64,000 bases of DNA from an uncultured Actinomycetota bacterium (GTDB lineage: Bacteria > Actinomycetota > Actinomycetes > JACCUZ01). The stretch's first letter is position 1. Each line of letters begins with the position of its first letter. The notes beneath the pieces are model-generated. The model was not told the origin of the DNA. It did no database searches and saw only the letters and a list, made by a program, of their open reading frames with translations. Of the stretch, positions 3,681 through 63,550 are shown in pieces. The DNA is taken from assembly GCA_963784645.1 (NCBI GenBank), contig CAWARY010000005.1, positions 178,656 through 242,655 on the forward strand, written 5' to 3'. A program made the translations under genes and the position numbers.

Positions 3681-3698
3681 CGCCAACCCAGATCTTTT

Positions 3699-3745
3699 GT
3701 GCGCCGACACACCGGATCTTCGGCGTGTCCGGTGTGTCAGCGCAC
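3699..3745. terminator. Bidirectional hairpin terminator between convergent genes (17-bp stem GTGCGCCGACACACCGG / CCGGTGTGTCAGCGCAC, 13-nt loop)
   Basis: A near-perfect inverted repeat is seen directly in the sequence. It lies between the DUF2550 stop (3680) and the adenosyltransferase stop (3765). Confidence 0.5.
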
Positions 3746-3764
3746 ATTCCGCGGGCGAGCCGCG

Positions 3765-6876: not shown

Positions 6877-6980
6877 GCCGCCCGCGCCCCTGCCGTGACC
6901 GGCCGGGGTCAGAGCGCTTCGGACAGGGGCCTGCTCGCCTGCCGGGCCGTCCGCCGTCGCCCAGGGGCACCCCGGTTTCC

Positions 6981-7033
6981 ATGATCCACAGGGGATCTGT
7001 TGGATATTTCCCAACGGATCCGCTGTGGATCAT
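6981..7033. repeat. Family-1 palindromic intergenic element, full copy (arms ATGATCCACAGGGGATCTGTTGG / CCAACGGATCCGCTGTGGATCAT, loop ATATTTC)
   Basis: Inverted repeat with 23-bp arms and 2 mismatches. Related copies occur at 44161-44217 and, truncated, at 32644-32688. Confidence 0.6.
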
Positions 7034-7091
7034 GAACTGGCGGGTGCATCAGGAGGGTTCCGGCGCTCTGACCTGGGACGAAGTGGTTCCG

Positions 7092-11001: not shown

Positions 11002-11868
11002 ATGCCGTACGCCAGCACGCGGACCGGCCGGGCCGACGCCGCGGAGATCACCGCCGCCCTCGCGGCGTGGACACCGCCGACCTGGACAGGCCAGCTGCAC
11101 CCGGGCGACATCGGCTGGCAGCTGCGGCTGGAGGACGAGCAGGTCGACGGGTCGTTCCTCGTGGTCCGGGACGGCGCGACGATCGTCGCGGTCGCGCTGG
11201 TCGACGACCCGCACACGGTCCGGCTCGCCGTCGACCCGGCGCGCGCGCACCACACCCCGCTGGCTGACTTCCTCGCCGACGCGGTCGAGGACCTGGTCGG
11301 CGACGGGGAGGCGTGGGCTGCCGGACTGCCGCTCGCAGGCTGGGGCGCCGTGCTGGCGGACCGGGGCTGGTCGGCTGACGGTGACCCGTGGGTCGCGCTG
11401 CACCGCGCGCTCACGGGAGCCGGCCGCGCAGCCCTCCCCGACGGGGTCGCTCCGGTGGCCGGCGACAGGGATGTCGCCGACCGGGTCGCCGTGCAACGGG
11501 CGGCCTTCGAGCGCTCCACGTTCACGGCGGCGCGCTGGGCGCTGATGGCCGCCGGTCCGTCGTACGACGGCGGGCTGGACCTGCTCGCGCGCGACCGGGA
11601 CGGGACGCCGGTGGCCGCCGGGACGGCGTGGCACGCGGGCGCGGGACGCTGCGCGGTGCTCGAGCCCGTCGGCACGCACCGCGACCACCAGCGGCTCGGC
11701 CACGGCCGGCGGCTCCTCGACGGGCTCTGCTCCCAGCTTGCGGCGGCGGGTTCCGCCAGCGTGGCCGTCGCGACACCGGCCTCGAACGAGGGAGCCGTGC
11801 GCGCCTACACGGCCGCGGGGTTCCGCGTGCTGGGGCTGCTCACGGACGTGCACCGGCCGGCTGGCTGA
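11002..11868 (+). CDS. GNAT-family N-acetyltransferase
   Basis: 288 aa. The C-terminal region carries an acetyl-CoA binding-like motif (RLGHGRRLLDGL). Confidence 0.6.
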   Translation: MPYASTRTGRADAAEITAALAAWTPPTWTGQLHPGDIGWQLRLEDEQVDGSFLVVRDGATIVAVALVDDPHTVRLAVDPARAHHTPLADFLADAVEDLVGDGEAWAAGLPLAGWGAVLADRGWSADGDPWVALHRALTGAGRAALPDGVAPVAGDRDVADRVAVQRAAFERSTFTAARWALMAAGPSYDGGLDLLARDRDGTPVAAGTAWHAGAGRCAVLEPVGTHRDHQRLGHGRRLLDGLCSQLAAAGSASVAVATPASNEGAVRAYTAAGFRVLGLLTDVHRPAG

Positions 11869-12841
11869 CCGGCTCGGCCGAGGGGATGCCGGCCAGCAGG
11901 GCTTCGACCTGGGCGAGCACGTCGTCGGCGCAACCCCAGGACAGCGTGACGCCGGCGCCGCCGTGGCCGTAGCAGTGCACCACGCCGCCGGGGGAACCGT
12001 CGGCGTGCGGCACGGTCTCCAGGCGTACCGAGGGCCGGGCCGGCCGCAGGCCGACGCGGTGGCCGAGGACCCGCGCCCCGCGCAGGGCCGGCACCAGCTC
12101 GACCGCCCGCGCCAGCATCTCGCTGGCGGTGGTGGGGTCGGGCTGCAGCGTCCAGTCGCCGTCCTGCGCGGTGCCGCCGACGACGACGTCGTGCTCCCGC
12201 GGGACGACGTACATCGGGCGCTCGTCGGGTGAGGTCTCGGAGACGAGCAGCCACTCGTGGACACCGGTCTGCGCGACCCGCACGACCTGGCCGCGCACCG
12301 GGTGCAGGGACGGGTCGTGGGCCAGGGCCCGGGATGCCAGCCCGGTGGCGTTGACGACCACGCCGGAGGTGGGCAGCCCACTCAGCCGGGCCCGGGTGAC
12401 AGTGCCGCCGGTCTGCTCGAGGCGGCGCACCAGGTGCGCGAGGTAGCTGCCCATCTCGGCGATCGGGAGCGCCAGCCGCCAGCCCCTGCTGAAGCCGGGC
12501 GCCGGGTCGACGACCGTGTCCAGCCGCGGGACGGCCGACCGCCACCAGGGCTGCTCGGGAGCGCCGCCGGGCAGCAGCTCGACGCCCTCGCGGACCCGCA
12601 CCCCGGTGCCGGGGGAGCCGGCCAGCTCGGTGAGCACGTCGTAGGTGCGAGCCGACCAGGCGGTGACCTTGTCCTGCGGGAGGGCCCGGTAGGGGTACCA
12701 GAGCGCCGCGGCCACCGACGAGGTCGTCTCGGCGGGGAGGTCGCGGGCCAGCACGTGGGTCTCGTGGCCGGCCTCGGCCAGCCGGACCGCGCAGGTCAGC
12801 CCGGTCACCCCGGCGCCCACCACGATCACCCGCACACCCAC
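11840..12841 (-). CDS. FAD-dependent oxidoreductase, D-amino-acid oxidase family
   Basis: GTG start with an N-terminal Rossmann motif VIVVGAGVTGLTCAVRLAEAGHE. The C-terminus (...HCYGHGGAGVTLSWGCA) is DAO-like. Confidence 0.7.
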   Translation of the reverse strand: MGVRVIVVGAGVTGLTCAVRLAEAGHETHVLARDLPAETTSSVAAALWYPYRALPQDKVTAWSARTYDVLTELAGSPGTGVRVREGVELLPGGAPEQPWWRSAVPRLDTVVDPAPGFSRGWRLALPIAEMGSYLAHLVRRLEQTGGTVTRARLSGLPTSGVVVNATGLASRALAHDPSLHPVRGQVVRVAQTGVHEWLLVSETSPDERPMYVVPREHDVVVGGTAQDGDWTLQPDPTTASEMLARAVELVPALRGARVLGHRVGLRPARPSVRLETVPHADGSPGGVVHCYGHGGAGVTLSWGCADDVLAQVEALLAGIPSAEPVSQPAGARP

Positions 12842-12920
12842 AGCGACCCAGCCTGCCGTACGCCGCCCGGCCGGGGAAGTCCCGCGCCGTGGAAGCCGCC
12901 CGCGCGTCGCCAGGAAAGAT

Positions 12921-12988
12921 CGTTTGCGACCTGAGCCCCGGACACGCCGGGGTACCCACCGGCGTGTCGGGGATCCAGGTCGCAAACG
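12921..12988. repeat. Family-2 palindromic intergenic element (nested inverted repeats CGTTTGCGACCTG...GACACGCCGG / CCGGCGTGTC...CAGGTCGCAAACG)
   Basis: A 68-bp hairpin-forming element. The second copy is at 60540-60607. Confidence 0.6.
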
Positions 12989-13085
12989 AGCGCCCTCCGG
13001 GTGCGGCACCCCGGGGGAGGCAGGCTGCGGGCCATCTTTGCCAAGAAGTGTTGGCAAAGGAGTGTTGGCATGGCATCCTCGGGGC

Positions 13086-13658
13086 ATGGCCGACCGCTTC
13101 CTCGACGTCTCCGACCCGCTGGCGCTGCGCGCCCTGGCCCACCCGCTGCGCGTCCGGCTGCTGCGGCTGGTCCGCGAGCACCGGCCGGTGACCAACGCCG
13201 AGCTGGCGGCGCTGGTGGGGGAGTCGACCGCGAACGTGAGCTACCACCTCTCGGTGCTGGCCCGGCACGGCTTCGTGGAGCCGGACCCCACGCCCGGCGC
13301 CACCCGCCGGCACAAGCCGTGGCGCACGACGTACGACCGGATGCGGATGCACTCGAGCGAGGGCGCCACGCCGCTGGAGAGCTCCGGCGGCGGTGCGCTC
13401 GCGGCGCTGCTGGCCGACGACCGCGCGACGCAGGACGCCTACCTGGCGGCGCCGAGCGCGCCGGAGGGCAGCACGTGGGACGCCGCCGTCTTCCAGATCT
13501 CCCGGCTGGTGCTCGACGCCGCGCGTGCCGAGGAGCTCGCCACCGAGGTGAGCGCCCTGCTCGACCGCTACCACGGCGACGCCGACCCCGGCCCGGACGA
13601 GGCACGGTTCGCCGTGTCGTTCGTGGCCGTCCCGGTCGGCGAGGGGGTGCCGCGATGA
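13086..13658 (+). CDS. ArsR/SmtB-family HTH transcriptional regulator
   Basis: MADRFLDVSDPLALRALAHPLRVRLLRLVREHRPVTNAELAALVGESTANVSYHLSVLARHGFV. It overlaps the MFS start (ATGA). Confidence 0.75.
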   Translation: MADRFLDVSDPLALRALAHPLRVRLLRLVREHRPVTNAELAALVGESTANVSYHLSVLARHGFVEPDPTPGATRRHKPWRTTYDRMRMHSSEGATPLESSGGGALAALLADDRATQDAYLAAPSAPEGSTWDAAVFQISRLVLDAARAEELATEVSALLDRYHGDADPGPDEARFAVSFVAVPVGEGVPR

Positions 13659-14911
13659 GTCCGCTCACCGGCCCGCTCCGGCGTCGCGACGTGCGGTTGC
13701 TGATCACCGGGTCGACGGTGTCCCTGGTCGGCGACGGCATCTACGGCATCGCGATGGCGGTGGCCGTCCTGCACCTCACCGGCAGCGCCACCGCCCTGGC
13801 GGCGATGGCGGTCGTGAACCTCGTGCCGCGGGTGGCCTTCGGGCTGATGGGCGGCGTGCTGGCCGACCGGCTCAGCCGCCGGGCGATCCTCGCGGTATGC
13901 GACCTGGTGCGGCTCGTCGTGGTCGCCGCCCTCGGTGCGCTGCTGCTCGCCGGTGACCCGCCGCTGTGGCTGCTGCTGGTGCTGGTCGCGCCGCTGGGTG
14001 CCGCCTCCGGTGCTGCGAACCCGGCCTTCAGCGCGATCCTGCCGGACCTCGTCGACGAGGAGGAGCTGGTCGCCACCGGCGGCCTGCTCGGCACGGTCAG
14101 TCCGATGGCGCAGATGGTGGTCGGCCCGGCCGTCGGCGGTGTGCTGGCGGCCTGGCACCCGGGGGCGGCGCTGCTCGTCGACGCCGCGACGTTCGCCGTG
14201 TCGGCCTGGTGCGTGCTGCTGCTCCGCCCGCCCGTGCTGCACGCGCCGGGCGAGGGCCCCCGGCCGCTGCCGTGGGCCGACTTCCGGGAGGGACTGGCCT
14301 ACGTCCGGCGCACGCCGTGGCTCGCCGTCAACCTGCTCTCCGGGCTCGTCATCACCTTCACCGTGTCCGGGACCATGCAGATGCTCCCGGTGCTGGTCTC
14401 CCGCGGCTACGGCGCACCGGTCGCGAGCTTCGGCTACCTGATCGCCGCGGGCGGGGTCGCCGCCACCGTCGCAGCGGCCGTCGTCGGCTCCCGGCCGCGC
14501 CCCCGGCGCCCGCTGGCGACGTCGTACGCGACGTACGCCCTGGGCCTGGGCGCCGTCGCCGGCCTGGGCGTCGCGCCGGGGCCGGTGGTCGGCGCGGTGT
14601 TCATGGTGGTGTTCTTCGTCGGTGCGACGGCGGGCAACGTGCTGCAGGACAGCGTCCTGGGCTCCCGGGTGCCCCGGGAGCTGCGCGGCCGGGTCGGGTC
14701 GCTCGACTGGGTCGCGGCGACGGCGGCCGCTCCGCTCTCGGTCGTGGTCGCCGCGCTCTCGGCCGACCATGCCGGCATCCGCCCGACGTACGTCGTGGCC
14801 GGCCTGGCCGCCGCCCTGTGCTCGCTCGCGGGGCTGGTGCTGCTGCGCCGCACCGGCGAGCCGACCGACACCCCGGCCCCGTCCGCCACGGCCCTGCAGT
14901 CGATCACGTAA
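13655..14911 (+). CDS. MFS transporter
   Basis: 418 aa, polytopic. It appears translationally coupled to the ArsR regulator. Confidence 0.85.
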   Translation: MSPLTGPLRRRDVRLLITGSTVSLVGDGIYGIAMAVAVLHLTGSATALAAMAVVNLVPRVAFGLMGGVLADRLSRRAILAVCDLVRLVVVAALGALLLAGDPPLWLLLVLVAPLGAASGAANPAFSAILPDLVDEEELVATGGLLGTVSPMAQMVVGPAVGGVLAAWHPGAALLVDAATFAVSAWCVLLLRPPVLHAPGEGPRPLPWADFREGLAYVRRTPWLAVNLLSGLVITFTVSGTMQMLPVLVSRGYGAPVASFGYLIAAGGVAATVAAAVVGSRPRPRRPLATSYATYALGLGAVAGLGVAPGPVVGAVFMVVFFVGATAGNVLQDSVLGSRVPRELRGRVGSLDWVAATAAAPLSVVVAALSADHAGIRPTYVVAGLAAALCSLAGLVLLRRTGEPTDTPAPSATALQSIT

Positions 14912-14981
14912 ACGTGATCCACCGTCTCCTCACACGGGTTGCACGCCGTGCAAGGCGCATGTCGACCACGTTTACGTGATC
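14902..14981. repeat. Nested dyad-symmetry element: outer arms GATCACGTAAACGTGATCC / ACCACGTTTACGTGATC around an inner palindrome TTGCACGCCGTGCAA
   Basis: Read directly. It overlaps the MFS stop codon and lies between the convergent MFS and nucS genes. Confidence 0.5.
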
Positions 14982-14989
14982 GCCGGACG

Positions 14990-44160: not shown

Positions 44161-44217
44161 CCGTGATCCACAGCGGATCCATGTGGTTTTTCCTCACCAA
44201 TCCGCTGTGGATCACGG
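44161..44217. repeat. Family-1 palindromic intergenic element, full copy
   Basis: CCGTGATCCACAGCGGATCCATGTGG-TTTTTCCTCA-CCAATCCGCTGTGGATCACGG, with 18-bp perfect arms. Confidence 0.6.
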
Positions 44218-47756: not shown

Positions 47757-47811
47757 GAGTGGCGCGTTGTGGTGGTTCTGTACCGGTAAGAAGTGCCACA
47801 ACGCGCCACTC
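47757..47811. terminator. Perfect 16-bp stem hairpin (GAGTGGCGCGTTGTGG / CCACAACGCGCCACTC) with a 23-nt AT-richer loop, 8 nt after the mutase stop
   Basis: Read directly. Confidence 0.55.
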
Positions 47812-57907: not shown

Positions 57908-60526
57908 GTGAAGGCGATCCGACGGTTCACCGTCCGTACCGTGCTGCCCCCCGCTCTGGCCCCGCTCGGCGAGCTGGCGCTGAACCTGCGCTGGTCGTGG
58001 GACACCGCGACCCAGCAGCTGTTCGAGGGGCTGGACCCGGTCCTGTGGGAGGAGGTCGGCGGCGACCCGGTGCAGCTGCTCGGCGCGCTCGGCCCGGAGC
58101 GGCTCGCCGCCCTGGGGCAGGACCAGGCCGTGGTCGGGCGGGTCCAGGCGGTCGCGAACGACCTGCGGGCCTACCTCGAGGGCGATCGCTGGTACCAGGG
58201 CGTCGCGGCGGCGGCGACCGGCGTCGACGACGCCGTGCCCGAGGCCATCGCCTACTTCTCGCCGGAGTACGGCATCGCCGCGGCGCTGCCGCAGTACTCC
58301 GGCGGCCTCGGGATCCTCGCCGGCGACCACCTCAAGGCGGCCTCGGACCTGGGTGTGCCGATCGTGGCCGTGGGCCTGCTGTACCGCTCCGGCTACTTCG
58401 CCCAGTCGCTGTCCCGCGAGGGGTGGCAGCAGGAGCGCTACCCGGTGCTGGACCCCGACGGCCTGCCGATCTCGCTGCTGCGCGAGGCCGGCGGCGAGCC
58501 GCTCAAGGTGCAGGTGGGCCTGCCCGGCGAACGTCGGCTGGTGGCGCAGGTCTGGAAGGCGCAGGTCGGCCGCGTGCCGTTGCTGCTGCTGGACTCCGAC
58601 GTCGAGGACAACGCCCCCGCCGAGCGGGAGGTCACCGACCGGCTGTACGGCGGTGGCAGCGAGCACCGACTCCTCCAGGAGATGCTGCTCGGCATCGGCG
58701 GCGTCCGGGCCCTGCGCGCGTTCAGCCGACTGACCGGCGCACCGGCGCCGACGGTGTTCCACACCAACGAGGGTCATGCGGGCTTCCTCGGCGTCGAGCG
58801 GATCCGCGAGCTCACTGAGGCCCACGGCCTGTCGTTCGACGAGGCCGTCGAGGCCGCCCGGTCGGCGACGCTGTTCACCACCCACACGCCCGTGCCCGCC
58901 GGCATCGACCGGTTCGCCCGCGACCTGGTCGCCCAGCACTTCGGCGGCGACAACGCCGCCCCCGGCGTGCCGGTCGACCGGGTGCTCGCGCTCGGCGCCG
59001 AGGACTACGAGGGCGGCGACCCGTCGGTCTTCAACATGGCCGTCATGGGCTTCCGGCTCGCGCAGCGCGCCAACGGCGTCTCCGAGCTGCACGGCCACGT
59101 CGCCCGGGAGATGTTCGCGCGGCTCTGGCCAGGCTTCGACGAGCCCGAGGTGCCGATCGGGTACATCACCAACGGCGTGCACGCCCCGACCTGGGTCGCG
59201 CCGGAGGTGCTCGAGCTGGCCGGCCCCGAGCTGGTCGAGAACCCGACCGAGCAGTCCGCCTGGGACGACGTCTCGCAGGTGTCCGACGCCGACATCTGGT
59301 CGGTGCGCGGCCTGCTGCGGGGCCGCCTGGTCGCCGACGCCCGCCGGCGGGTCCGGTACTCGTGGGTGCAGCGCGGTGCCAGCGAGGCCGAGCTGGGCTG
59401 GGTCGACAAGATCCTCGACCCCGAGGTGCTGACGATCGGTTTCGCGCGCCGGGTGCCGTCGTACAAGCGGCTCACGCTCATGATGCGCGACGAGGAGCGC
59501 CTCACCGCGCTGCTCACGCACCCGGAGCGCCCGATCCAGATCGTGGTCGCCGGCAAGGCGCACCCGGCTGACGACGGTGGCAAGAAGCTCATCCAGGAGC
59601 TGGTGCGTTTCGCGGACGCTCACGGCGTCCGCGACCGGATCGTCTTCCTGCCGAACTACGACATCGCGATGGCGCAGACCCTCTACCCGGGCTGCGACGT
59701 CTGGCTCAACAACCCGCTGCGCCCGCTCGAGGCGTGTGGCACGTCCGGCATGAAGGCGGCCCTCAACGGCTGCCTCAACCTGTCGGTGCTCGACGGCTGG
59801 TGGGACGAGTGGTTCGACGGCCACAACGGCTGGGCGATCCCCACCGCAGACGGTGTCACCGATGCCGACCACCGCGACGACCTCGAGGCGGCGGCGCTCT
59901 ACGACCTTCTCGAGAAGACGGTCTCGCCGTTGTTCTACGACCGCGACCAGCAGGGGCTGCCGGCCAGGTGGATCGAGATGGTCCGGCACACCCTGCAGAC
60001 CCTCGGCCCGAAGGTGCTCGCCACCCGGATGGTCCGCGACTACGTGGTCGGCCTGTACGCCCCGGCGTACCGCTCGGGTCGCGCGCTGGACGGCGGCTAC
60101 TCCGGCGCCAAGGAGCTCGCGGCGTGGAAGACCAAGGTGCGGACGGCCTGGCCGTCGGTGCGCGTCGACCACGTGGAGGCCTCCGGAGTCGACGACGCCG
60201 CCGAGGTCGGCAGCACGCTCGAGGTCCGGGCGTTCGTCTCGCTCGGCCACCTCGCGCCGGAGGACGTCGACGTGCAGGTCGTGCACGGCCGGGTCGACGA
60301 CAACGACCAGATCACCGGCACGTCGGCCGTGTCCCTGCGGCACGAGGAGGTCTACGAGGGCGGCCGGCACCGCTACGTCGGTCACCTCGTCCTGGACCGG
60401 CCCGGACCGTTCGGCTACACCGCCCGGGTCGTGCCGCACCACCGGCTCACGGCCTCCGCCGCCGAGCTCGGGCTCGCCGCGCTGCCCGCCGAGTCCGCGG
60501 GGATGGACTCCGGCGTCCTCCGCTAG
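57908..60526 (+). CDS. glgP: Alpha-glucan phosphorylase (GT35, maltodextrin/glycogen phosphorylase)
   Basis: 872 aa from a GTG start, VKAIRRFTVRTVLPPALAPLGELALNLRWSWD... Confidence 0.88.
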   Translation: MKAIRRFTVRTVLPPALAPLGELALNLRWSWDTATQQLFEGLDPVLWEEVGGDPVQLLGALGPERLAALGQDQAVVGRVQAVANDLRAYLEGDRWYQGVAAAATGVDDAVPEAIAYFSPEYGIAAALPQYSGGLGILAGDHLKAASDLGVPIVAVGLLYRSGYFAQSLSREGWQQERYPVLDPDGLPISLLREAGGEPLKVQVGLPGERRLVAQVWKAQVGRVPLLLLDSDVEDNAPAEREVTDRLYGGGSEHRLLQEMLLGIGGVRALRAFSRLTGAPAPTVFHTNEGHAGFLGVERIRELTEAHGLSFDEAVEAARSATLFTTHTPVPAGIDRFARDLVAQHFGGDNAAPGVPVDRVLALGAEDYEGGDPSVFNMAVMGFRLAQRANGVSELHGHVAREMFARLWPGFDEPEVPIGYITNGVHAPTWVAPEVLELAGPELVENPTEQSAWDDVSQVSDADIWSVRGLLRGRLVADARRRVRYSWVQRGASEAELGWVDKILDPEVLTIGFARRVPSYKRLTLMMRDEERLTALLTHPERPIQIVVAGKAHPADDGGKKLIQELVRFADAHGVRDRIVFLPNYDIAMAQTLYPGCDVWLNNPLRPLEACGTSGMKAALNGCLNLSVLDGWWDEWFDGHNGWAIPTADGVTDADHRDDLEAAALYDLLEKTVSPLFYDRDQQGLPARWIEMVRHTLQTLGPKVLATRMVRDYVVGLYAPAYRSGRALDGGYSGAKELAAWKTKVRTAWPSVRVDHVEASGVDDAAEVGSTLEVRAFVSLGHLAPEDVDVQVVHGRVDDNDQITGTSAVSLRHEEVYEGGRHRYVGHLVLDRPGPFGYTARVVPHHRLTASAAELGLAALPAESAGMDSGVLR

Positions 60527-60539
60527 CCCCACACCATCT

Positions 60540-60607
60540 CGTTTGCGACCTCACTCCCCGACACGCCGGGATGGCCGCCGGCGTGTCCGTGAGCCAGGTC
60601 GCAAACG
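60540..60607. repeat. Family-2 palindromic intergenic element, second copy
   Basis: CGTTTGCGACCTCACTCCCCGACACGCCGGG-ATGGCCG-CCGGCGTGTCCGTGAGCCAGGTCGCAAACG, lying between the glgP and glgX stops. Confidence 0.6.
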
Positions 60608-60643
60608 AGCGAGAGGGGTGGGCGGGCGGTGGGCCGCCGGACG

Positions 60644-62722
60644 TCAGCGGTGCGCGGCGAGGACGACGACCGTGCGGCCGGCGAGGGTAAGGTCGGCGGC
60701 GCTGTCGTGCCGGGCACCGGGGCCCGGCAGCTCGTCGGCGGTGTCGAGCAGCACGTCGTAGGCCGTGCCCCACGCCTTGCCGGGCAGCCGGACGGACACC
60801 GTCTCGGGACCGGTGTTGAGCAGGACGAGCAGCGGCACGGGCGACGAGCCGTCGGCGGCGGGCTTTCCGGACAGGTACATCCCGAGCAGCCTCAGGTCGT
60901 GGTCGAACCACTGCTCCGGTGACATCTCCTCCCCGTCGGGACCGAACCACGCCAGGTCCTTCGTGCCGTCGGCGTGGGCGGGCCGGCCGTCGAAGATCTC
61001 GTCGTGCCGCAGCACCGGGTATGCCGCACGCAGCGCCAGCAGGGCGCGCGTCCACTCGAGCTGCGCCCGCTGCCAGTCCTCGAGCTCCCACGACAGCCAG
61101 GACGTCTCGTCGTCGAGGCAGTACCCGTTGTTGTTGCCGCCCTGGGTGCGCGCGGCCTCGTCGCCGGCCGTGAGCATCGGCACGCCGGTCGAGACGAGCA
61201 GCGTCGTGAGCAGGTTGCGCATCATCCGTCGGCGCAGGGCGAGCACCCCGGCATCGTCGGTGGGACCCTCGGCGCCGCAGCCCCAGCTGTGGTTGTGGTC
61301 GGTGCCGTCGTGGTTGTCCTCGCCGTTGGCCTCGTTGTGCTTGCGGTCGTAGGAGACGACGTCGTGCAGCGTGAAGCCGTCGTGCGCGGTGACGAAGTTC
61401 ACCGACGCGAGCGGGCCGCGCGAGGAGAACAGGTCCGACGAGCCGGACAGCCGGTACGCCAGGTCCCGCACCCCGCCGGAGTGCCCGCGCGCGCCGTGCC
61501 CCGCCAACCAGGCGTCGCGGACGGTGTCGCGGTAGCGGTCGTTCCACTCGGCCCAGGGTGCGGGGAACGCGCCGAGCTGGTAGCCCCCCGGACCGACGTC
61601 CCACGGCTCGGCGACGAGCTTCACGTCCGACAGGACCGGGTCCTGCCCCAGCACCTGGAGGAACGTGCCGTCGGCCTCGAAGCCGTCGCCGCCGCGGGCC
61701 AGGGCCGGCGCGAGGTCGAAGCGGAAGCCGTCGACGTGCATCTCCTCGACCCAGTACCGGAGCGAGTCGGCGACCATCGCCAGGGTGCGGGGGTGGGTCA
61801 GGTCGAGCGTGTTCCCGCACCCGGTGACGTCGAGGTACCGGCGCCCGCCGGCGAGCCGGTAGTACGCCGCGTTGTCGAGGCCGCGCCACGACAGGGTCGG
61901 GCCGTCGGCGCCGCCCTCGGCGGTGTGGTTGTAGACGACGTCGAGCACGACCTCGAGACCGGCGGCGTGCAGCGTCCGCACCATGTCGCGGAACTCGGTG
62001 ACCTGCTGGCCGCGAGCGCCGGACGACGAGTAGCCGGCGTGCGGCGCGAAGAAGCCGAGGGTGTTGTAGCCCCAGTAGTTCGCGAGCCCGCGCCGCAGCA
62101 GCGCGGGCTCGCTGGACAGCTGCTGCACCGGCAGCAGCTCGACGGTCGTGACCCCGAGCGACACGAGGTGCTCCACGGCCGCGGGGTGGGCCAGTCCGGC
62201 GTAGCTGCCTCGCAGGTGCTCGGGAACCCCGTGGTGACGGGCGGTGAAGCCCTTGACGTGCGCCTCGTAGACGACGGTGTCGGCCCATGGCACCTGCGGA
62301 CGTCGGTCGCCCTGCCAGTCGTACCCGGGGTGGAAGACCACGGCGTGCGGCACGTACGCCGCCGAGTCGCGGTCGTCCGGGCTCCGGTCGTCGGTGCCCG
62401 GCCCGGGACCGAGCACGGCCGGGTCGAGCCGCAGACTTCCGTCGATGGCCCGGGCGTAGGGGTCGACGAGCAGCTTGGCGGGGTTGAACCGGTGGCCGTG
62501 AGCCGGGTCCCACGGCCCGTGGACGCGGTAGCCGTACCGCTGCCCCGGCCGGACGCCCGCGACGTACCCGTGCCACACGTCGTGGGTGCGCTCGGTGAGC
62601 CGGACCTGTCGCTCGCCGCCGTCGTCGTCCAGCAGGCAGAGGTCCACGGCCTCGCCCCGGCTGAACACCGCGAACGACGTCCCGTGGTCGTCGGGGTGGG
62701 CGCCGAGGCGGGGGACGAGCAC
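60644..62722 (-). CDS. glgX: Glycogen debranching enzyme
   Basis: About 692 aa from a GTG start (VLVPRLGAHPDDHGTSFAVFS...), GH13 with a CBM48 N-terminus. Confidence 0.88.
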   Translation of the reverse strand: MLVPRLGAHPDDHGTSFAVFSRGEAVDLCLLDDDGGERQVRLTERTHDVWHGYVAGVRPGQRYGYRVHGPWDPAHGHRFNPAKLLVDPYARAIDGSLRLDPAVLGPGPGTDDRSPDDRDSAAYVPHAVVFHPGYDWQGDRRPQVPWADTVVYEAHVKGFTARHHGVPEHLRGSYAGLAHPAAVEHLVSLGVTTVELLPVQQLSSEPALLRRGLANYWGYNTLGFFAPHAGYSSSGARGQQVTEFRDMVRTLHAAGLEVVLDVVYNHTAEGGADGPTLSWRGLDNAAYYRLAGGRRYLDVTGCGNTLDLTHPRTLAMVADSLRYWVEEMHVDGFRFDLAPALARGGDGFEADGTFLQVLGQDPVLSDVKLVAEPWDVGPGGYQLGAFPAPWAEWNDRYRDTVRDAWLAGHGARGHSGGVRDLAYRLSGSSDLFSSRGPLASVNFVTAHDGFTLHDVVSYDRKHNEANGEDNHDGTDHNHSWGCGAEGPTDDAGVLALRRRMMRNLLTTLLVSTGVPMLTAGDEAARTQGGNNNGYCLDDETSWLSWELEDWQRAQLEWTRALLALRAAYPVLRHDEIFDGRPAHADGTKDLAWFGPDGEEMSPEQWFDHDLRLLGMYLSGKPAADGSSPVPLLVLLNTGPETVSVRLPGKAWGTAYDVLLDTADELPGPGARHDSAADLTLAGRTVVVLAAHR

Positions 62723-62767
62723 CGGGCAACGGTAGGCGATCGCCGCGGGCTCGTTACGGTGACGCCC

Positions 62768-63550
62768 ATGACTGAGGCTCTCGTACGGCTCGAGGTGGAG
62801 GACGGGATCGGCACGATCCGCCTCGACCGCCCCCCGATGAACGCCCTCAGCGTGCAGGTCCAGGAGGAGCTGCGCGCGGCCGCCCACGAGGCCGGGGAGC
62901 GGTCCGACGTCGCGGCCGTGGTCCTGTACGGCGGCGAGAAGGTCTTCGCGGCCGGCGCGGACATCAAGGAGATGACCACGATGTCGTACGCCGACATGGT
63001 GGGCCGGTCCGGCCCGCTGCAGTCGTCGTTGACCGCCGTCGCCACGATCCCGAAGCCGGTGGTCGCCGCGATCACCGGCTACGCCCTCGGTGGCGGCTGC
63101 GAGCTCGCCTTGTGCGCCGACTTCCGGGTCGCGGGCGACAACGCCAAGCTCGGGCAGCCGGAGATCCAGCTCGGTGTCATCCCCGGTGCCGGCGGCACCC
63201 AGCGGCTGCCGCGGCTGGTCGGGCCCGCGCGGGCCAAGGACATCATCTTCAGCGGCCGCTTCGTCGACGCGCAGGAGGCGCTCGCGATCGGCCTGGTCGA
63301 CAAGGTCGTGCCGGCCGACGAGGTCTATGCCGCCGCGCGCGCGATGGTCGCGCGCTTCGTCGGCGGCCCGGCGCTCGCGCTGCGGGCCGCGAAGGCCGCG
63401 GTCGACGGCGGCCTCGAGACCGACCTCGCCACCGGTCTCGAGCTCGAGCGCCTGCAGTTCTCCAGCCTGTTCGCGACCGACGACCGCCGCATCGGCATGG
63501 AGTCGTTCGTCGCCAACGGTCCCGGCAAGGCCGAGTTCACCGGCCGGTGA
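62768..63550 (+). CDS. Enoyl-CoA hydratase/isomerase (crotonase family)
   Basis: 260 aa, MTEALVRLEVEDGIGTIRLDRPPMNAL... Confidence 0.85.
   Translation: MTEALVRLEVEDGIGTIRLDRPPMNALSVQVQEELRAAAHEAGERSDVAAVVLYGGEKVFAAGADIKEMTTMSYADMVGRSGPLQSSLTAVATIPKPVVAAITGYALGGGCELALCADFRVAGDNAKLGQPEIQLGVIPGAGGTQRLPRLVGPARAKDIIFSGRFVDAQEALAIGLVDKVVPADEVYAAARAMVARFVGGPALALRAAKAAVDGGLETDLATGLELERLQFSSLFATDDRRIGMESFVANGPGKAEFTGR

Follow-up and report, generated by a model that had tools for sequence, protein, structure and literature searches.

Introduction

To our knowledge, dedicated enzymes flanked by repeats of the repetitive extragenic palindromic (REP) type have been characterized mainly in Proteobacteria and are always HUH transposases. 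REP sequences are defined as self-folding units of 20–40 bp that often form inverted doublets and carry a GTAG or CGTC tag, and a survey of tagged REPs reported none in Actinobacteria (PMC3733652). In this study, we analyzed a stretch of 64,000 nucleotides from an uncultured Actinomycetota bacterium (contig CAWARY010000005.1, positions 178,656–242,655; hereafter the window), which contains two copies of a long nested palindrome. Both are members of a clade-restricted, non-coding 74-bp repeat family of uncultured soil actinomycetes. This family probably behaves like REPs and their hairpin-forming doublets (REPINs), with a predicted nuclease as partner instead of the REP-associated tyrosine transposase (RAYT).

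AbiEi antitoxins, known from type IV AbiE toxin–antitoxin systems, in which they share an operon with the nucleotidyltransferase toxin AbiEii, bind inverted repeats and autoregulate. The attC recombination sites carry R''/R' boxes of the form RYYYAAC...GTTRRRY and are accompanied by cassette arrays and an integron integrase. I-Bth0305I is a multidomain homodimer with a footprint of ~60 bp on a pseudopalindromic site (PMC3239194). A review of PD-(D/E)xK nucleases places Vsr, DUF559, and DUF2726 in one group with the structures 3hrl and 3r3p (PMC3424549).

Results

A dispersed family of palindromes in one actinobacterial clade

We scanned 185,579 species, represented by one genome each, for the pattern GTTTGCGACCT-N34-50-AGGTCGCAAAC. 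This exact-arm pattern gave 90 stretches, all of them in six metagenome-assembled genomes (MAGs) of uncultured Actinomycetota/Actinomycetes. Collection of copies around these matches, with up to two mismatches allowed per box, yielded 104 non-redundant family members in many different gene contexts, 103 of which are extragenic. Since copies were counted within the fetched 8-kb loci around exact-arm matches, the numbers per genome are minima and amount to at least 12–29 in each of five well-sampled genomes and one in a sixth, fragmentary MAG. The window belongs to none of these six genomes; its closest match, locus L006, is 83.5% identical. The presence of exact-arm stretches in six other genomes and in many contexts shows that the family is real and dispersed. 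The first-pass annotation of the window had proposed such a family from two copies, and instead of being unique to these two loci the element has 104 copies elsewhere.

A profile hidden Markov model (HMM) of the 104 members detected the two annotated copies in the window (E 1e-19 to 1e-21) and no further confident one; the next match lies at 3696–3740 (E = 0.006). When up to two mismatches were allowed, the 13-mer of the element occurred 10 times in the window compared to 2.2 expected occurrences, and none of the shuffled sequences reached 10. The two copies can be aligned across the palindrome and a few bases outside, and their flanks do not align. Elsewhere in the family, tandem pairs of elements, 92–126 bp apart, were seen at L011:3339–3529 and L002:2681–2838, where the orthologous loci have one element; this clustering resembles bacterial interspersed mosaic elements.

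The unit is defined by two boxes per arm and their spacing

In the alignment of all copies, the unit is 74 bp long: its arms carry an outer (GMTCGTTTGCGACCT) and an inner (GACACGCCG) box, and the 9–10 nt of the center are free. The consensus reads G-M-TCGTTTGCGACCT, about 8 variable nt ending in YC-MC-S, GACACGCCG, 9–10 free nt, CGGCGTGTC, a variable segment, and AGGTCGCAAACGA-K-C. The positions first given for the two palindromes, 12921–12988 and 60540–60607, agree with the sequence, but the length of 68 bp does not hold: conservation runs four bases past these limits, and the conserved units span 12918–12991 (copy 1) and 60537–60610 (copy 2), both on the + strand. Likewise, the outer repeat, annotated as perfect over 15 bp, is 14 bp long in each copy (12920–12933/12976–12989 and 60538–60551/60596–60609), and the terminal 13-mers are not all identical, as the left 13-mer of copy 2, CGTTTGCGACCTC, has one mismatch to copy 1. 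The 10-bp inner repeat GACACGCCGG/CCGGCGTGTC is indeed perfect in both copies.

Copy 1, delimited by family-wide conservation and the profile HMM, lies in the canonical orientation. Its left outer box GATCGTTTGCGACCT (12918–12932, +) consists of positions that are invariant or nearly invariant in 75–104 copies. This box is followed by the left variable segment GAGCCCCG (12933–12940, +), which represents the non-TGG half and carries the conserved mismatch opposite CCA, and by the left inner box GACACGCCG (12941–12949, +). The central spacer or loop of 10 nt (12950–12959, no strand assigned) is constrained in length and free in sequence. The right arm is composed of the inner box CGGCGTGTC (12960–12968, +) and the variable segment with the right outer box, GGGGATCCA GGTCGCAAACGAGC (12969–12991, +), in which the conserved CCA sets the orientation. 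In copy 2, the orthologue of L006:706–770, the inner boxes GACACGCCG and CGGCGTGTC flank the 10-nt spacer GGATGGCCGC (60560–60587, +).

Both window copies fold into hairpins of −51 to −58 kcal/mol on either strand (z ~ −7.5 to −8). The cruciform or RNA hairpin put forward in the first-pass annotation is therefore physically possible, but the conservation pattern points to sequence and not to pairing. The two boxes of each arm are nearly invariant and held at fixed spacing, while the center and a short internal segment drift freely; the loop is 9 nt long in 57 and 10 nt long in 42 of the 104 copies. The two members of the polymorphic ±3 pair change independently of each other (CT 26, AG 24, CG 24, AT 18), and no excess of pairing was found in the family alignment at the V7 inner-stem position or at the loop-closing positions. 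Mismatches in the inner stem are frequent across the family. Because the variable paired positions do not covary, the constraint acts on sequence and spacing, not on base pairing.

One arm carries TGG/CCA beside the outer box and the complement is avoided in the other arm, resulting in 75 mixed halves compared to 50 expected (p = 3e-7). Each element thus has an intrinsic orientation and a conserved mismatch. This orientation shows no clear relation to transcription (16 vs 11), GC skew, or contig position.

Outside the unit, at ±11 to 30 nt, the 5' flank has ~55% C and the 3' flank ~55–65% G on either strand. Cognate flanks pair no better than non-cognate ones, i.e., the flanks share composition and no specific pairing. 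They may have degenerated from an ancestral palindrome of greater length or reflect a preference for certain targets. A U-tract, which follows the G+C-rich hairpin in an intrinsic terminator, is absent from the G-rich 3' flank, which shows weak T enrichment at +6 to +10, and a terminator scan made no terminator-like call at either window copy. Searching the window against Rfam gave no match at gathering thresholds, and the element itself produced sub-threshold microRNA-hairpin noise only. Target-site duplications of 2–9 bp, with boundaries 0–15 nt outside the core, were not in excess over non-cognate controls.

Copies lie mainly downstream of genes and are largely inherited vertically

The 96 classifiable copies are distributed over 38 convergent, 46 tandem, and 12 divergent gaps, and one more copy is intragenic. 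This distribution deviates from that of the other intergenic gaps of the same loci (chi-square p = 1.4e-10), with a 2.5-fold enrichment in convergent gaps. Where a copy faces a stop codon, the median distance is 35 nt; where it faces a start, it is 105 nt. Of the 96 copies, 84 face at least one gene 3' end. In the window, both annotated gene contexts were confirmed. Copy 1 lies in a 250-bp gap between the gene for a DAO-type flavin adenine dinucleotide (FAD) oxidoreductase (11840–12835, −) and the divergent ArsR-type helix-turn-helix (HTH) gene (13086–13658, +), which is accompanied by a major facilitator superfamily (MFS) gene. Copy 2 lies 14 nt past the stop codon of the glgP-like gene (57908–60526, +) and 37 nt from the stop of the convergent glgX-like gene (60644–62887, −).

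More than half of the copies (56 of 104) fall into 21 orthologous groups, in which the flanking, mostly coding DNA is ~83% identical between species. The family is thus inherited vertically in large part. Across 40 orthologous pairs, identity is ~98% in the boxes, ~74% in the variable segments, 48% in the center, and ~65% in the adjacent 50 nt; window copy 2 and its orthologue L006:706 have identical boxes and almost wholly different spacers. Arms that stay intact at more than half of the sites despite saturated centers indicate constraint or homogenization.

We also detected a recent gain. The element at L066:3020 appears as a 74-nt insertion relative to L019, directly past a stop codon and without target-site duplication, and its closest relative is a copy 899 bp away. 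Several orthologous comparisons revealed indels the size of whole genes, involving accessory genes, immediately beside elements, and in one of them a gene is bracketed by two elements where the relative has a single element. These comparisons (L031:2922 vs L088:6605–7560, L056 vs L040, L033 vs L086, L004 vs L087, and L023 vs L075/L038) involve glyoxalase/pterin-dehydratase-like, MFS and ArsR-type HTH, MMPL and TetR, MDMPI_N, and bleomycin-resistance-like genes, and elements may act as recombination points.

Family members flank a gene for a predicted nuclease

In four of the six genomes, a gene beside dnaE that encodes a protein of ~320 amino acids is bracketed on both sides by members of the family. 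PADLOC models for AbiEi match residues ~1–195 of this protein (E 1e-8), and some homologues weakly match the DUF559, REase_MTES_1575, and DUF2726 profiles. An AlphaFold (AF2) model of the protein (predicted local distance difference test 91, predicted template modeling score 0.88) has AbiEi (6y8q) as its best fold match, and its C-terminal domain matches the catalytic domain of I-Bth0305I (3r3p, TM 0.71 on target) and the DUF559-like structure 3hrl. Residues E205, S206, R209, D239, E250, D252, H256, and R257 are invariant in the alignment. These matches suggest that the protein combines an N-terminal, DNA-binding region of the AbiEi type with a PD-(D/E)xK nuclease domain of the Vsr/DUF559 type that has invariant acidic and histidine residues.

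Extra solitary inner-box motifs in the conserved setting CCCCAGCCCCCT-CGGCGTGTCGCC occur between dnaE and the predicted nuclease gene in L005, L018, L035, L054, L091, and L102; located near the dnaE promoter, they may constitute a further candidate binding site. The gene is also carried by the short-read Logan contig L167 (1,451 bp), which stops at the flanking palindrome on the downstream side. Other contigs with homologues are in many cases only ~1.0–1.5 kb long, consistent with assembly breaks at the repeats.

Homologues have palindromes of their own

Homologues of the flanked protein at 59–62% identity still adjoin dnaE. Those at 42–55% identity have other neighbors, with mreB and ndk on either side in some cases and DUF948 and rarA in others, and are also bracketed by related palindromes, which have different boxes; the palindrome of L093 has its outer box in inverted orientation with respect to the inner one. 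Even homologues down to ~30% identity are bracketed by lineage-specific palindromes.

Using protein alignment, we found 62 further loci in metagenomes. The test for flanking palindromes covered 46 loci with enough flank and used an ungapped detector for arms of at least 14 bp. Palindromes were detected on both sides of the gene at 21 of the 46 loci and on one side at 8, whereas none of 61 control genes in the same loci had them on both sides (Fisher p = 7e-10). The upstream and downstream palindromes of one locus are much more alike (median 0.59) than those of different loci (0.20). Moreover, the more similar two proteins are, the more similar their palindromes tend to be (rho 0.45, 0 of 2000 permutations).

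Other palindromes and repeats in the window

A second palindrome family, TGATCCACAGSGGATC ... GATCCGCTGTGGATCA with AT-rich centers, is present at 6980–7034 and 44161–44216 and was not found in any of the 167 fetched loci. It starts with (A/T)GATC, like many nuclease-associated palindromes, and could belong to a paralogous nuclease as its cognate repeat. The weak family-profile match with E = 0.006 corresponds to a 49-bp palindrome at 3698–3746, TGTGCGCCGACACACCGGA / TCCGGTGTGTCAGCGCACA, which contains the inner-box-like motif CGACACACCGG. Another palindrome, GAGTGGCGCGTTGTGGTGGTTCT / AGAAGTGCCACAACGCGCCACTC at 47757–47811, lies directly past a stop codon and loosely recalls those flanking distant nuclease homologues, e.g., in L131. 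Between the MFS gene and the next gene, an imperfect palindrome of 83 bp, CGATCACGTAAACGTGATCC ... CACGTTTACGTGATCG, spans 14900–14982. Finally, the repeats CTTTGCCAAGAAGTGTTGGCAAAGGAGTGTTGGCA at 13034–13070, just upstream of the ArsR-type gene, are probably the operator of this regulator itself and unrelated to the palindrome family.

Discussion

We favor the view that the 74-bp palindromes are REP/REPIN-like repeats with a predicted nuclease as partner. The partner protein would recognize the boxes by their sequence, probably binding duplex DNA as a symmetric multimer. Since the homodimer I-Bth0305I covers ~60 bp of a pseudopalindromic site, it is plausible that a multimer of the partner protein recognizes the two-box palindrome of 74 bp, and this would explain the invariant boxes, the fixed spacing, the free center, and the absent covariation. 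Through nicking or cleavage, this protein could then cause the palindrome to be copied occasionally into further intergenic sites, keep existing copies homogeneous, or do both. Copies would persist mainly 3' of genes because insertion is tolerated there. Secondarily, the very stable hairpin in the transcript may shield 3' ends or hinder read-through from one convergent gene into the other. On a broader scale, the palindromes and the AbiEi-Vsr-fold protein might together represent an undescribed class of palindrome-plus-nuclease elements, widespread in soil Actinomycetota, in which lineage-specific cognate palindromes are copied or homogenized by the nuclease, and which would be a counterpart of REPIN-RAYT of independent PD-(D/E)xK origin. 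We put this wider proposal forward tentatively, as possible and a little short of probable. Our literature search found no description of an association between such palindromes and a nuclease gene, which is not proof of its absence.

Several observations weigh against the REP/REPIN-like reading or its extension. The flanked gene is not among the proteins of the 64-kb window, the protein itself matches no Pfam or NCBIfam family in hmmscan, and the matches to nuclease folds are weak (Foldseek E 0.3–2.4). The ungapped detector found no flanking palindrome at 17 of the 46 homologue loci, and the correlation between protein and palindrome similarity could partly reflect plain co-inheritance. Dispersed copies are demonstrated in one clade alone. 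Moreover, the conservation of arms among orthologues is partly imposed by the collection procedure, as near-exact arms were required for inclusion. As for mobility, only one clean filled/empty pair was found, and its empty site in L019 already contains GATCGTT, the same sequence as the end of the element, so that the boundaries are odd.

The palindromes could also be plain RNA devices, i.e., bidirectional hairpin terminators or 3'-end stabilizers that spread by duplication and need no dedicated protein. Such devices would account for very stable hairpins on both strands, for the median position 35 nt past stop codons and the 2.5-fold enrichment in convergent gaps, and for an orientation unrelated to the direction of transcription (16 vs 11), as expected for a symmetric hairpin. 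We nevertheless consider them unlikely, because the window copies have neither a U-tract nor a terminator-like call, variable stem positions do not covary, and mismatches in the inner stem are frequent. A structural role also does not predict two near-absolutely conserved boxes, a conserved mismatch, and a fixed loop of 9–10 nt, far above the stability optimum, and 12% of the copies, window copy 1 included, lie in divergent promoter gaps. Finally, it gives no reason why one protein family should be bracketed by the same palindrome in different lineages. Absent covariation and fixed spacing suit duplex binding, and this would also be seen if the palindromes were operators of a regulon, with the AbiEi-like protein as a pure transcription factor and the gene-proximal copy serving autoregulation. 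The N-terminal match to AbiEi, whose antitoxins bind inverted repeats and autoregulate, and the copy that is always present in the promoter region of the gene, together with the solitary inner-box motifs there, agree with this idea. It is distinctly unlikely, however, given that only 12 of the 96 classified copies are found in divergent promoter gaps, the other 84 facing at least one 3' end of a gene. In addition, most lineages have a second copy downstream of the gene, the nuclease-type residues of the C-terminal domain are invariant, and one copy was recently gained as a precise 74-nt insertion.

This insertion, together with palindromic ends, small size, and intergenic sites, is reminiscent of classical miniature inverted-repeat transposable elements (MITEs) of a DDE-type insertion sequence, for which the outer arms would be the terminal inverted repeats. 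Yet no 2–9-bp target-site duplication was found at symmetric boundaries, compared to non-cognate controls, or in the filled/empty pair. The ~784 kb around the copies contain very few solitary arms and no longer arm-bounded element, and conserved inner boxes at fixed spacing are unexpected for the interior of a MITE, which makes this origin very improbable. Similarly low is the probability that the palindromes are attC-like recombination sites that mark the boundaries of gene cassettes, even though outer and inner boxes, a variable center, a conserved unpaired asymmetry, and sites directly past stop codons are reminiscent of attC. The accessory-gene indels next to elements, and the gene between two elements where the relative has one, would fit as well. 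At ~83% identity, however, indels are to be expected next to intergenic elements, and the second case is explained by recombination of one palindrome with the other. The outer boxes GTTTGCGAC...GTCGCAAAC do not fit RYYYAAC...GTTRRRY and have reversed polarity, and the copies are single and scattered beside housekeeping genes, not in arrays. In the part of the locus genes that was scanned against Pfam, namely the recurrent protein clusters and the genes next to indels, we noticed no integrase.

If the association between the palindromes and the predicted nuclease is functional, the combination of a palindrome family with a dedicated enzyme evolved at least twice from unrelated nucleases, which would bear directly on whether these repeats should be seen as selfish, domesticated, or beneficial. 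In that case, a large group of AbiEi/DUF559-like proteins of actinobacteria that lack annotation would gain a testable function, and a long (~74 bp), modular, and naturally diversified recognition site would be defined. On the practical side, the repeats appear to break short-read assemblies, as at least one Logan contig ends at a palindrome, and they mark points of gene gain and loss in family-bearing genomes.

How does the family compare with the known systems? Its members share with attC sites the imperfect palindrome, the approximate length, the outer and inner boxes, the variable center, and a conserved unpaired feature, and they too lie directly past open reading frames; box consensus and polarity differ from attC, arrays are lacking, and the neighbors are housekeeping genes. 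AbiEi is the best structural and profile match of residues ~1–195 of the flanked protein. In contrast to AbiEi, this region is fused to a predicted nuclease-type domain and its cognate repeats are dispersed genome-wide, and no AbiEii-like gene lies beside the flanked gene in seven contexts, where the neighbors are dnaE, mreB/ndk, DUF948/rarA, and similar genes. In the case of I-Bth0305I, a homing endonuclease with the EDxHD/Vsr fold, the C-terminal domain of the flanked protein matches the catalytic domain, and the size and symmetry of the footprint resemble the 74-bp element. However, this enzyme resides in a phage group I intron and cuts the intron-less allele, whereas the gene described here is free-standing, chromosomal, and bracketed by complete palindromes, and its product has an AbiEi-type N-terminal region.

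The closest parallel remains REP/REPIN-RAYT. The first-pass annotation had pointed to REP and MITE families for comparison: dispersal and a flanked gene are indeed REP-like, but the REP unit and tag, the HUH enzyme, and the target-site duplication of MITEs have no equivalent here. Each family member forms a single hairpin of 74 bp whose arms carry two boxes each, in contrast to a REP of 20–40 bp or a self-folding doublet; half of an element contains no internal palindrome and no GTAG/CGTC tag, the family ends being GMTCG...CGAKC. The flanked gene encodes a predicted AbiEi-like/Vsr-DUF559-fold protein and not an HUH Y1 (IS200-like) transposase. Queries of phmmer with IS200 TnpA and E. coli RAYT sequences gave nothing at E ≤ 10 among 7,244 six-frame open reading frames of the loci and the window. 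The hosts, too, are different, as they belong to the Actinomycetota. On the other hand, both systems consist of short extragenic palindromes that are present in tens of copies after genes and between convergent genes, are inherited vertically and conserved across related species, and show a conserved asymmetry of the stem. In both, the same repeat is found on both sides of a single-copy gene that diverges together with its repeats.
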